The notes beneath the pieces are model-generated. The model was given only the letters and a program-made list of their open reading frames with translations, was not told the origin of the DNA and did not search any database. Positions 18,500 through 21,295 of a stretch of DNA of 64,000 bases are shown piece after piece. Numbering within the stretch: the first letter of the stretch is position 1; the number at the start of each line of letters is the position of its first letter. Source of the stretch: Alphaproteobacteria bacterium (lineage in GTDB: Bacteria; Pseudomonadota; Alphaproteobacteria; JAAXGF01); the NCBI GenBank assembly GCA_963555825.3, contig CAUVXB020000002.1, forward strand, positions 1,216,001 to 1,280,000. Direction: 5' to 3'. The position numbers were made by a program, and so were the translations under genes.

Positions 18500-20035
18500 C
18501 TACGCCAAAGCGAGGAAAATTGCTGCCAGGGCGATCAAACCCGCCCAGAACAAGGGCCTTCCACCGCGCCGACCCGCATTGCCGCCCAGCGCGCGCACCG
18601 TCTCGGGGTGCAGCTTGAGGCCACCCTCGGCGAGGTCGGCGAGCGTCGCCTCGGCGTCCTTGACCAGCTTGGGCAGGCGCTGGACGGTCGCGATGGCCTC
18701 GGCCGTGGCGTCGGCGATGCGCGCTTCGGGGCCCAGATTGTCACGCGCCCAGTCCTCGATCGGCGGCTGGGCGAGCACCCAGATGTTGGCTTCCGGGTCG
18801 AGACGGCGGCTCAAGCCCTCGGCGAGCATCATGGTCTTCTGCAGCAACAGGAGCTGCGGCTGGGTCGCCATCTCGAAGGTCTCGGTGACGCGGAACAGCT
18901 GGCCGAGCAACCGGGCGAGCGAGATCTCGCTCAGCGGCCGGCCCAGGATCGGCTCACCGATCGCGCGGCACGCCTGGACGAAGGCGTCGCGTGACTGGTG
19001 CGCCGGCACGTAGCCGGCCTCGAAATGGACGTCGGCGACGCGGCCGTAGTTTCCAATTAGGAAACCAAGCAGCATTTCGGCCAGATAGCGCCGGGTTTCC
19101 TTGCTCAACCGGCCCATGATGCCGAAATCGACCGCGACGATGTCGCCGTCGGCGTCGACGAACAGGTTGCCCGGGTGCAAATCGGCGTGGAAGAAGCCAT
19201 CGCGGAAGGTCTGGTTGAAGAACGCGCGCGACGCCTTTTCGACGATCGCGCCGAGATCGTGGCCGGCCGCGATCAGCGCCTCGCGCTCGTCGATCGGGAT
19301 GCCCGCGATGCGCTCCAGCGTCAGCACGCGCTCGGCGGTGCGCCGCCAGTCGACAGCGGGCACACGGAAACCGTCGTCGTCGGCGAGGTTTTCAGCGAGT
19401 TCCGAGGCGGCGGCGGCCTCGAGCCGCAGGTCCATCTCGATCGCCACCGAGGCGGCGATCGTGCGCACCACCTCGACCGGCTTGAGGCGGCGCCACGCCG
19501 GCTGGGTGCGCTCGATCAGCTCGGCCAGCCAGTAGATCAGGTCGAGGTCGCGCGCGAAGGCCTGCTCGACGCCAGGGCGCAGCACCTTGACCGCGACCGG
19601 GACGCCCTCGACGGTGGTCGCCAGATGGACCTGGGCGATCGATGCCGCGGCGACGGGATCGTCGTCGAAGCTCTCGTATAGTTCGTCGAGCGGCGCCCCG
19701 AACGCGGCCTCGATCGTCGCGCGCGCTTGGCTCCCCGGGAACGGCGGCAACCGATCCTGCAGGTTGGCGAGGTCGTCGGCCATCGCCGCGCCGATCAGGT
19801 CGGGCCTGGTCGAGAGCGCCTGGCCGAGCTTGATGAAGCTCGGCCCCAGTTCGTTGAGCGCGACCGACAGGCGCTCGCCCGGCCGGCCCGGCACGCCGCG
19901 CCGCGAGACCAGCCGCGCGATCGCCGGAACGAGCGGGCCGAGACCGAGCAGCTCGAGCGGAAACAGTGCGTCGTGGCGCGCCAGGATGCGCGCGATCGCC
20001 AGCAGGCGGGCGAGGTTGCGGAGCGCGCGGATCAT
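18500..20035 (-). CDS. ubiB: Ubiquinone biosynthesis kinase-like protein UbiB
   Basis: LGPSFIKLGQALSTRPD, AAASIAQVH, VAVKVLRP, FFHADLHPGN, DFGIMG, QPQLLLLQKT. Confidence 0.96.
   Translation of the reverse strand: MIRALRNLARLLAIARILARHDALFPLELLGLGPLVPAIARLVSRRGVPGRPGERLSVALNELGPSFIKLGQALSTRPDLIGAAMADDLANLQDRLPPFPGSQARATIEAAFGAPLDELYESFDDDPVAAASIAQVHLATTVEGVPVAVKVLRPGVEQAFARDLDLIYWLAELIERTQPAWRRLKPVEVVRTIAASVAIEMDLRLEAAAASELAENLADDDGFRVPAVDWRRTAERVLTLERIAGIPIDEREALIAAGHDLGAIVEKASRAFFNQTFRDGFFHADLHPGNLFVDADGDIVAVDFGIMGRLSKETRRYLAEMLLGFLIGNYGRVADVHFEAGYVPAHQSRDAFVQACRAIGEPILGRPLSEISLARLLGQLFRVTETFEMATQPQLLLLQKTMMLAEGLSRRLDPEANIWVLAQPPIEDWARDNLGPEARIADATAEAIATVQRLPKLVKDAEATLADLAEGGLKLHPETVRALGGNAGRRGGRPLFWAGLIALAAIFLALA
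19048..19065. promoter_or_regulatory. Intragenic palindromic site (candidate auxiliary operator) inside ubiB
   Basis: agtttccaattaggaaac is the exact reverse complement of 21252-21269. Confidence 0.65.
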
Positions 20036-20040
20036 CGGGT

Positions 20041-20152
20041 TAGGCCCTGTTTTGCGGTCAATCGCCGCGCTTGCTTTCGCCGAACGGTCGGCGGCGCGCA
20101 GTCGCGCGCTGGTAGATTCCGATCAATTGCGATCAGTCGGTACATGCTCTAG
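20041..20152 (-). repeat. Repeat family A, copy 3 (shortened)
   Basis: Reverse complement reads tagagcatgtaccgac...aatctaccagc...gccgaccgttcggcgaaagcaagcgcggcgattgacc. Confidence 0.75.
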
Positions 20153-21216
20153 ATCCGCCACGCCGAATGCAGCGCTGCGACGCCGCCGGTCAGGTTCCGG
20201 TAGCGCACGTTGCCCAGCCCCGCGGACTCGATCAGGGCGGCGAAGTCGTCCTGGGCGGGGAAGCGCCGGATGCTTTCGACGAGGTACTGATAGGCCGCGC
20301 GGTCGCCGGTGACGATCTCGCCGAGCGCCGGCAGCACACGGAAGGAATAGGCATCGTAGAGTGCGCCCAGCGCGGGCAGCGCGACATGGCTGAACTCGAG
20401 GCAGACGAAGCGTCCACCCGGCTTGAGCACGCGCCGAGCCTCGGCCAGTGCACGCTCGATGCGCGTGACGTTGCGGATGCCGAAGGCGATGGTGTAGGCG
20501 TCGGTGCTGGCGTCGGCGAGCGGCAGCGCCTCGGCGTCGCCGCACAGCCAGTCGATGCCGGCGACGATGCCGTCGTCGAGCGCGCGGTCGCGGCCGATCT
20601 CGACCATCGCGCGGTTGATGTCGCAGACCGTGACCCGGGCGCCGGTTCGCGCGCCGCCGGCGCGCGCCAGGATGCGCCGCGCGACGTCGCCGGTACCGCC
20701 CGCGACGTCGACGGTATGGCTGCCGGCGCGTGGCTTGAGCCAGTCGATCATGTCGGCCTTCCACAGCCGATGCACGCCGGCGCTCATCAGGTCGTTCATC
20801 AGGTCGTAGCGCGCGGCCACACTCGAGAAGACCGCGTCGACCAGCCGGCGCTTCTCGCCCGCGCCGACGTCGCGAAAGCCGAAATCGGTGGTGTCGGCCT
20901 GGCGGTCGCCGTCGGCGTGCGGGGCCGGCCCGGGCCGCCGCGTGGGTCTGGCGCGCGACGGCGCCCGGGGCGCAGGCCGATCCGCCGTCTCGGCCACGCT
21001 ATCGGCCGCGCCGCCGGTGCCCGGCGCGTAATCGCCGAGCAGCTCTTCGGCCGGCACGTCGAGCGCCCCGACCAGCTTGGCGATGGTGACGTCGCGCAAA
21101 TGCAGATCGCCGCGCTCGAGTTTCGAGATCGTCGGCTTGCCGAGCCCGACCAAGCGGCCGAGGGCCTCCTGGGTCAGGCCGCGCTCGCGGCGCCAGTGGC
21201 GAATTCTGTTCTGCAT
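20149..21216 (-). CDS. ubiE: XRE/Cro-CI HTH domain fused to ubiquinone/menaquinone C-methyltransferase UbiE
   Basis: N-terminus [43 protein letters not shown], Pro/Arg linker, then [54 protein letters not shown] before ATG 21216. Confidence 0.9.
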
Positions 21217-21251
21217 GTCCCCGCATTCGGGTCGCGGTTGCCGCACCCAAT

Positions 21252-21295
21252 GTTTCCTAATTGGAAACTTTACGCCTTCTCGTGCGATTTTTGAA
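21252..21295 (-). promoter_or_regulatory. Predicted sigma70 promoter of HTH-ubiE overlapped by palindrome GTTTCC-N5-GGAAAC
   Basis: Minus strand TTCAAA (21295-21290)-N17-TAAAGT (21272-21267); palindrome at 21252-21268. Confidence 0.65.

Follow-up and report, generated by a model that had tools for sequence, protein, structure and literature searches.

A helix-turn-helix domain fused to the quinone methyltransferase UbiE and a palindrome in its promoter: a probable autorepressor in an uncultured alphaproteobacterial family

Why would an enzyme of ubiquinone synthesis carry a DNA-binding domain, and why would a palindrome in its promoter recur inside a gene further down the same cluster? These questions are raised by a 64,000-nucleotide stretch of alphaproteobacterial DNA, hereafter the window (assembly GCA_963555825.3, contig CAUVXB020000002.1, positions 1,216,001 to 1,280,000), which belongs to a genome of 6,042,393 bases (G000) and whose genes are given here in coordinates of the forward strand. 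On the minus strand of the window, at 20149-21216, the gene for the C-methyltransferase UbiE begins with a helix-turn-helix (HTH) domain of the XRE/Cro-CI type. The sequence GTTTCC-N5-GGAAAC is found exactly twice in the window, once in the promoter of the fusion gene (21252-21268; O1) and once inside ubiB (19049-19065; O2), and in none of the shuffled versions of the window. An earlier note, made from the sequence of this DNA alone, had proposed that the fusion represses its own gene. Our analysis indicates that HTH-UbiE probably does so through O1, a reading that is well supported by comparison with relatives and from which we infer DNA binding, repression and dimer formation by the protein.

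The fusion gene translates to 355 amino acids plus a stop codon, with no internal stop. Residues 5-59 match the whole of the Pfam profile HTH_3 (PF01381, profile positions 1-55; E 6.8e-11, 42.5 bits where the cut-off is 23), and residues 121-353 match Ubie_methyltran (PF01209; E 1.3e-80, 270.5 bits). The protein also passes the NCBIfam UbiE equivalog NF001242, narrowly, with 354.1 bits against a cut-off of 351, as well as TIGR01934 with 258.8 bits against 158.35. In an AlphaFold2 model built on 51 relatives (mean predicted local distance difference test score, pLDDT, 77.7), residues 5-63 form a confident five-helix bundle (helices 5-11, 16-23, 27-34, 42-52 and 56-63; block pLDDT 79-96), the 42 residues 65-106 have a pLDDT below 50, and the C-terminal part takes a confident Rossmann-type methyltransferase fold. 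On the minus strand, the HTH domain (residues 1-64) is thus encoded at 21025-21216, a Pro/Arg/Ala linker predicted to be disordered at 20899-21024, and the UbiE/COQ5 C-methyltransferase domain (residues 107-355), with the S-adenosylmethionine (SAM)-binding motif DVAGGTGD, at 20152-20898. By sequence and predicted fold, the fusion is a member of both the XRE HTH family and the UbiE family, and the description of a complete XRE HTH joined to an intact UbiE is upheld.

Both halves appear to be maintained. Within the fusion the HTH is conserved best, with 73-88% identity across the family, and its ten-residue recognition-helix region is nearly invariant. In the enzyme half, D170, A172, G173, G174, T175, G176 and D177 do not vary among 51 fusion proteins, nor do 80-odd further columns. 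The linker is hypervariable in both length (about 10-80 residues) and sequence among the 51 aligned fusions. The closest solved relatives of the HTH are C.BclI, HipB, C.AhdI and the P22 C2 repressor. A homodimer prediction with two full-length copies and the 51-row alignment returned a score of 0.00, which is no answer and speaks neither for nor against dimerisation.

The HTH and the enzyme are likely made as one polypeptide. Inspection by eye found no ATG, GTG or TTG among the in-frame codons 74-132, in agreement with the earlier report of a linker free of stops and Met, and a separately translated UbiE is therefore unlikely. The internal start considered was the GTG at codon 73, which lacks an obvious ribosome-binding site. 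As the next-best UbiE match in G000 is only 36% identical, the fusion is the cell's UbiE. Given that it is the only orthologue in a genome with ubiA, ubiG, a ubiH-like gene and ubiB, we infer that it is the quinone C-methylating enzyme. The genes ubiA, ubiG and the ubiH-like hydroxylase gene are encoded elsewhere in G000.

Is the fusion real, and how far does it extend? Our comparison set comprised 13 genomes of one uncultured alphaproteobacterial family. At E <= 1e-10 the 66-residue HTH was detected in 11 of these genomes, each time in one reading frame with UbiE, and in none of the 28 genomes from other families searched. A scan of all species-representative genomes with an HTH alignment gave 11 loci with at least 73% identity, all from this group, the remainder having at most 57%. 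A search of 5.8 billion protein clusters with residues 1-120 gave 55 matches (E <= 1e-5), of which 53 carry PF01381 together with PF01209, so that the domain architecture first noted in one sequence recurs in nearly all related clusters. Where the source databases name such clusters, they say only UbiE. When residues 1-109 were compared with 1.84 billion representatives, no close stand-alone relative of the HTH was found; the search returned representatives of the fusion family, short fragments and then generic multi-HTH proteins.

The stretch 18900-21600 is present in 14 sequencing runs from five studies, at 84% or more of the sampled words, some of the runs being labelled as sponge metagenome. 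Contigs from two other studies (X4 and X6) run through the linker junction, as well as the sites in the promoter and in ubiB, with zero or one difference, and a contig from an RNA library (X20) covers 20853-21020 with no difference. This support comes from contigs, from which transcript ends or levels are not readable, and parts left uncovered in the RNA-library runs X17 and X20 carry no evidential weight. An assembly chimera, the artefact against which the earlier note had cautioned, is ruled out by the presence of the fusion in 11 of the 13 family genomes and by the contigs of other studies that bridge the junction. The fusion is real and, judging from its conservation, selected.

In the two family genomes without the fusion (G003, L014; G008, L020), the HTH may have been lost. 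Their UbiE proteins form one clade (Shimodaira-Hasegawa-like approximate likelihood ratio test, SH-aLRT, 97) in a tree from a quick search of 28 rows with no rows dropped, and this clade sits, weakly supported (82), within the rows that carry the fusion, which hints at secondary loss. A further genome, G012, a 57%-complete metagenome-assembled genome, has two different fusion copies on separate short contigs (G012:C49 and G012:C264; L026 and L034), whose HTHs are 85% and 83% identical to that of the window. These copies probably reflect a strain mixture rather than a duplication.

What the HTH might bind is suggested by the promoter. On the gene strand O1 reads GTTTCC-AATTA-GGAAAC, and its assignment as a candidate operator at 21252-21268 follows from the sequence match and its conservation. 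The site begins inside a -10-like hexamer, TAAAGT (21272-21267, minus strand), 52 nt before the ubiE start codon. A spacer of 17 nt separates this hexamer from a -35-like TTCAAA (21295-21290, minus strand), and the two elements, assigned by eye and by conservation, match the sigma-70 consensus at 8 of 12 positions. To compare promoters we oriented 23 fusion loci: the window, 11 from genomes and 11 from metagenomes. One of them has just 21 nt of upstream DNA, leaving 22 for the operator count; as several are near-duplicates, these amount to roughly 15 distinct sequences. The palindrome is found in every one of the 22, at 22-64 nt ahead of the start codon (16 exact, five with one mismatch and one with two), and an upstream alignment anchored on the palindrome shows flanks that have almost completely diverged. 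At nine ubiE loci without the fusion, no site with three or fewer mismatches was found within 400 nt upstream.

The position of the palindrome is also informative. In 18 of the 22 loci TAAA abuts the palindrome, giving TAAAGT, as the earlier note had seen in the window, and 16-17 nt above the -10-like element stands a -35-like hexamer that reads TTCAAA, TTCCAA, TTGGAT, TTGAAT or TTGCAA. The operator is thus fixed relative to the -10-like element and variable (22-64 nt) relative to the start codon, as would suit a site that acts on transcription initiation rather than on translation. In each of the six variant promoter sites a single arm is altered, the inner pair being broken in L043, L044, L045, L093 and L094 and another pair in L092, with no compensatory change in any of them, which argues against an RNA hairpin. 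The near-invariant recognition helix is paralleled by near-invariant half-sites. Given the architecture of the protein, the conservation, the strict pairing and the fixed position at the -10, an operator for an autorepressor is the natural reading of O1. The pairing of fusion and palindrome (22 of 22 loci with the fusion, 0 of 9 without) backs the self-repression put forward from the window alone, and fusion-bearing relatives without the promoter palindrome, which would have spoken against it, were not found among the 22.

The promoters of genus g6 have a further feature. Three genomes of this genus have two or three additional GTTTCC half-sites in direct orientation, 10-11 nt apart, over the -35-like hexamer. 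The g6 loci concerned are L035, L036, L037 and L088-L090, and the half-sites lie 34-55 nt upstream of the operator. It is possible that they offer further binding positions where an intragenic site is missing.

Can the copy of the palindrome inside ubiB be explained by chance? The gene (18500-20035, minus strand) encodes a 511-aa, ABC1 kinase-like UbiB (TIGR01982, 563 bits), and O2 lies 2203 bp from O1, centre to centre. The 18-mers 19048-19065 and 21252-21269 are 100% complementary, spacer and one flanking base included, in line with the exact inverted repeat described earlier. O2 is spelled GGT TTC CTA ATT GGA AAC (codons G324-N329), and the genome-wide codon shares of GGT (0.10), CTA (0.016), ATT (0.077) and GGA (0.047) show that these A/T-ending codons are indeed atypical. 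The joint probability of this spelling for its peptide is 4.4e-6, computed from 2143 long open reading frames pre-filtered at a third-position G+C content (GC3) of at least 0.75, so that the bias is somewhat exaggerated. Thirteen other fusion loci encode G-F-L-(T/A)-G-D at the homologous position with G/C-ending codons, typically GGC TTC CTC ACC GGC GAC. That usual family sequence already matches the operator at 10 of 17 positions (G.TTCC.....GG..AC), and the seven base changes that distinguish O2 from it all run toward the operator and to A or T. The ubiB copy of the palindrome is, by these comparisons, far from chance.

The history of O2 is bound up with that of the DNA around it. The site is present in the window, in its close relative L087 and in L040, a locus of another genus (G007). 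On contig G007:C168, L040 is 91-99% identical to the window over about 18356-20332, which runs from the 3' end of ubiE through ubiB into the following spacer; outside this patch G007 is 65-87% identical to G000 upstream and unalignable downstream. This indicates that a segment of about 2 kb with ubiB moved recently between lineages by recombination; a double contig chimera in G007 is less likely because it needs two junctions. The spacers of O1 and O2 agree in both G000 (AATTA/TAATT) and G007 (AAATA/TATTT). Their covariation was considered as strong evidence and discounted, as it comes down to one central base pair and a recent recombinant patch. We also considered whether an invariant Asp of UbiB had been sacrificed for O2. 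This is ruled out, since Asn takes the place of the Asp in 14 of the 118 clusters in which the motif could be located among the 120 closest UbiB clusters, four of the 14 belonging to the clade with the site. The case for selection on O2 rests on its exact match, its rare codons and its location rather than on a cost to the protein. The palindrome in ubiB does occur only with the fusion, a point that the earlier note had suggested checking, yet the result is trivial: few of the fusion loci have the site.

A second clade carries its second site in a different gene. In G001 and the metagenome locus L092, the one further exact site near the operon lies inside coaBC, at a downstream distance from the promoter site of 4.6 kb in G001 and 3.2 kb in L092; the coaBC of the window (17067-18278, minus strand) has no site. 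The coaBC site reads GTT TCC AAy ATG GAA AC (V-S-N-M-E-T), whereas other family members have CAG GCC AAC ATG GMA AC (Q-A-N-M-E/A-T) or similar, GTT TCC having replaced CAG GCC. It took four base changes and shares its half-sites, not its spacer, with the promoter operator of the same locus. Between G001 and L092, the three wobble positions in the half-sites are kept and three of five nearby wobbles have changed, although these are small numbers. Among the best 120 CoaBC clusters, the 12 with V-S-N-M-E-T are all at least 87% identical to the G001 enzyme, and neighbouring clusters have A-A, T-A, L-A, V-A or Q-S at the same two positions. As G001 and L092 form a fully supported clade in the UbiE tree, separate from the clade with the ubiB site, the coaBC site appears to have arisen independently of the ubiB site. 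Second sites thus look to be lineage-specific and not a fixed part of the system.

Counted over whole genomes, the motif is enriched within this family alone. In the 6.04 Mb of G000, a scan of the kind the earlier note had suggested finds only the two exact copies of GTTTCC-N5-GGAAAC, where a mononucleotide model expects 0.2. The 13 family genomes have 19 exact sites against one for the reversed control, and 17 of the 19 have A/T-rich spacers. By comparison, 120 genomes of other families have 23 sites, one of them in the unpublished G052, while the control pattern occurs 27 times, and only three of the 23 have A/T-rich spacers. Three genomes, G000, G007 and G001, have just two exact sites each, and in each case both belong to the ubi gene cluster. 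With a background of about 0.2 per genome, it is very unlikely that two sites should have arrived independently within 5 kb of the promoter by chance, an argument that is rough because half-matching coding sequence converts more easily at some positions. One 17-mer in G077 is identical to the coaBC site of L092; it lies outside coaBC and was set aside as a coincidence.

Several observations weigh against a self-contained autorepressor with functional second sites. The promoter was not reported by a strict scan, its 8 of 12 matches falling below the threshold of 9, so that its assignment depends on conservation. Exact sites with A/T-rich spacers also occur away from the cluster: four in G002 (two of them at contig ends and so probably a single locus) and one in G006, in both genomes in genes unrelated to quinones, and one in the fusion-less G003, within a gene for a GMC oxidoreductase. 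G009 and G011 (genus g10) have a near-site between dnaJ and dapB. In G000 no operator-like site was found within 500 nt upstream of ubiG, ubiA or the ubiH-like gene, and the fusion is therefore not a controller of the whole pathway. As for O2, a site in ubiB is present in only three of the 16 fusion loci that reach the position, and these three share the 91-99% identical patch of about 2 kb and hence a single origin, which makes its conservation uninformative on purifying selection. The residues imposed by O2 also recur elsewhere, Asn being found in 10 of 114 UbiB clusters that do not belong to the clade with the site, and Ile recurring where Thr is usual, so that the cost of O2 to the protein is small. 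Lastly, that O1 and O2 agree in their spacers in G000 and G007 depends on one central base and is weak evidence.

The remote sites of G006 and G002 are at L104 (G006:C413:859), L105 (G002:C36:22144), L107 (G002:C98:821) and L106/L108 (G002:C57:6 and C127:8750). Their contexts are a tetratricopeptide repeat (TPR)-sulfotransferase gene, a TPR gene, an unassigned open reading frame, and a spacer next to genes for a cyclic nucleotide (cNMP)-binding protein and a GNAT acetyltransferase. The promoter site of G002 itself is degenerate, with one mismatch. In genus g10 the near-sites L099 (G009:C40:20271-20287) and L100 (G011:C56:7084-7100) read GTTTCC-N5-CGAAAC and occupy the short dnaJ-dapB spacer; CGAAAC is the same variant right half as in the ubiE promoter sites of G009 and G011. 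It is possible that the dnaJ-dapB near-site is an extra target of the fusion, which may thus not be purely self-regulating and may have further targets in some lineages. A wider regulon in G000 was also sought and none was found: its nine one-mismatch sites are all in copies of an insertion sequence that are 99.8% identical. In this genome, control appears to be local to the ubi cluster.

How might such a protein work? We propose that an active UbiE C-methyltransferase of ubiquinone synthesis is joined to an XRE-type HTH through a flexible linker, and that two such HTH domains would bind the half-sites of GTTTCC-N5-GGAAAC as a dimer. Since the bound site begins in the -10 element and covers the likely transcription start, RNA polymerase would be excluded, and the fusion would limit its own synthesis along with that of co-transcribed genes, ubiB at least. 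The long, variable and disordered linker would let the catalytic domain work or meet partners independently. The site in ubiB, or in coaBC in the other clade, would be an auxiliary operator that raises the occupancy of O1 by way of a DNA loop or of cooperative binding; a strong site anywhere within a few kilobases could do this, in keeping with the differing intragenic positions. Our guess at the signal is a switch like that of PutA, in which engagement of UbiE with its substrate or with the Ubi enzyme complex would pull the fusion off the DNA. Taken as a whole, the picture of an idle UbiE, free of substrate or Ubi complex, that bridges promoter and coding-region operators, with such operators selected at least twice and independently, in ubiB and coaBC, by way of rare A/T-rich codons, is a tentative one that we would not favour as it stands.

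For the second sites, auxiliary action through either looping or a roadblock is plausible, and an auxiliary operator for looping or cooperative binding is most likely the better of the two. It is also conceivable, although we doubt it, that O1 is a working autoregulatory operator and the intragenic copies are non-functional by-products, the ubiB copy having come from O1 by template switching or gene conversion and then hitch-hiked with a ubiB segment that recombines, and the coaBC copy being the product of drift at tolerant codons. The ubiB sequence usual in the family has 10 of the 17 bases already in place, O2 is an exact inverted copy of O1 down to the spacer, as templated correction would give, its single origin is in a patch of about 2 kb bounded by dispersed repeats, other UbiBs tolerate the imposed residues, and most fusion lineages have no second site in the operon, all of which speaks for by-products. 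However, 2.2 kb between sites is far for template switching at a quasi-palindrome. The coaBC site, in a different clade, needed four changes and shares half-sites only; its half-site wobbles were kept between G001 and L092 where three of five nearby were not, small as these numbers are; and the only two exact sites of three genomes lie 2.2-4.6 kb apart against a background of about 0.2 per genome.

The chief alternative to looping is a roadblock, in which protein bound within ubiB or coaBC would stall RNA polymerase and uncouple the distal genes (what is left of ubiB, coaBC and dut) from ubiE; we consider it unlikely. The intragenic site is on the transcribed path in both clades, and C.Kpn2I, a related XRE controller, acts in this manner from a site within its own gene (PMC6237814). 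Yet the sites stand at +2.15 kb in ubiB and at +3.2 and +4.6 kb in coaBC, so that different genes would be cut off, and a block inside a gene of an essential pathway such as ubiB would waste transcript. It is very improbable that the fused HTH does not recognise the palindrome at all and has some different role, the palindrome being instead an RNA hairpin in the 5' leader and the ubiB mRNA or a site for another factor specific to the family. A stem of 6 bp with a 5-nt loop could form if transcription started upstream, and the fusion-less G003 has an exact A/T-spacer site. Against this stand the one-armed, uncompensated changes in the six variant promoter sites, the fixed spacing to TAAA with a variable distance to the start codon, the co-occurrence of site and fusion (22/22 versus 0/9), and the match of a near-invariant recognition helix with near-invariant half-sites. 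Autorepression through O1, with the intragenic sites most likely as auxiliary operators, remains the preferred reading.

Enzymes that repress genes of their own pathway are known. PutA (ribbon-helix-helix, RHH, and proline dehydrogenase), BirA (winged helix and biotin ligase) and NadR (HTH and nicotinamide mononucleotide, NMN, adenylyltransferase) each join an enzyme and a DNA-binding domain in one polypeptide that represses genes of its own pathway, and for all three the metabolic signal is known. HTH-UbiE, whose two domains belong to other families and are both intact and conserved, would act like these trigger enzymes. In layout, the fusion is close to methyltransferases of the M.SsoII/M.Ecl18kI type, which have an XRE/434-like HTH of about 70 residues, a proline-containing linker and a Rossmann-fold SAM methyltransferase (PMC3978073). 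There, the N-terminal HTH, flexible linker and methyltransferase of M.SsoII are described as forming a 2:1 complex on a promoter palindrome in a negative feedback, and that source and PMC2760811 report two molecules bound to the palindrome of their own promoter in competition with RNA polymerase. As enzymes with this layout repress their own promoter (PMC3978073), the earlier statement that no regulator of this kind had been described was too broad. The M.SsoII type methylates DNA cytosine in restriction-modification and also controls the nuclease gene, whereas the fusion is a probable quinone C-methyltransferase with no expected second DNA-binding activity and a much longer, more variable linker. 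Its neighbours are fpg, ubiB, coaBC and dut, which is no restriction-modification context, and it is not a C5-cytosine DNA methyltransferase. The fusion would therefore resemble the M.SsoII-type autoregulators by analogy without being a member, its catalytic domain and gene context being different.

The closest solved relatives of the HTH are controller (C) proteins (2b5a, E 1.4e-9; 1y7y, E 5.7e-8), which like C.BclI, C.AhdI and C.Kpn2I are small five-helix XRE dimers on palindromic boxes in their own promoters. For C.Kpn2I, use of a site in the coding region as a roadblock is described (PMC6237814). Unlike HTH-UbiE, C proteins stand alone, at about 75-80 aa, with differing boxes and in a restriction-modification context. 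In lac (O2 inside lacZ), gal (OI) and lambda (OL-OR), a second operator in a downstream gene or kilobases away strengthens repression, and the looping repressors of the lac, gal and lambda type are known tetramers or octamers. The ubi clusters are like these systems in having sites of the same sequence near one promoter (O1 and O2 in G000, G007 and L087; O1 and the coaBC site in G001 and L092) and unlike them in that the second site is lineage-specific and in different genes in different clades. A literature search, which left subscription journals mostly outside, found no HTH-UbiE fusion, no dedicated regulator of ubiE-ubiB and no ubiquinone trigger enzyme.

The surroundings of the fusion gene have their own history. 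On the minus strand the order is HTH-ubiE, ubiB, coaBC, dut (16591-17106) and a thiF-like gene; fpg/mutM (21527-22357, plus strand) is divergent from HTH-ubiE. A dispersed intergenic repeat of about 100 bp flanks ubiB, with one copy in the ubiE-ubiB spacer (20053-20152) and a second, inverted copy in the ubiB-coaBC spacer (18316-18415), the two being 77% complementary. With a 111-bp query, 267 candidates came up in G000, of which 40 were scored as matches; contig depth peaks at the ubiB-flanking repeats in all four runs mapped, and these repeats approximate the ends of the ubiB segment common to G000 and G007. The fpg-ubiE spacer holds an insertion of about 185 nt (about 21300-21490) that the nearest relatives do not have, the fpg start codon being about 72 nt from the operator in L085-L087, L040, L038 and L041. 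The insertion includes a run of 23 G on the gene strand (21371-21393) and a high-copy repeat (21406-21486). The run is 11 bases shorter in one X6 contig, X4 contigs end there, and G000 has 14 G or C runs of at least 12 bases. Insertion sequences have expanded massively in G000, with a 1131-bp element in roughly 90 copies at 99.7-100% identity and others of 1.2-2.3 kb in 4-9 copies each; a DDE_3 transposase gene (14134-15258) lies directly downstream of the ubi cluster. Together with the sponge-metagenome labels of some runs, this expansion suggests a host-associated lifestyle.

To our knowledge, little is understood of how bacteria control ubiquinone synthesis at the level of transcription, and the regulatory half of HTH-UbiE proteins is absent from current database annotation. 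One protein of 355 aa and one site of 17 bp would make a compact, testable case despite the uncultured hosts. If the intragenic copies are operators, they would show how, in nature, rare codons can embed a regulatory site in a coding sequence, here on two occasions and in two different genes of one cluster, and as such would bear on the evolution of overlapping codes. For the family itself, the comparisons point to a conserved fusion of enzyme and putative repressor that is confined to this one uncultured group.

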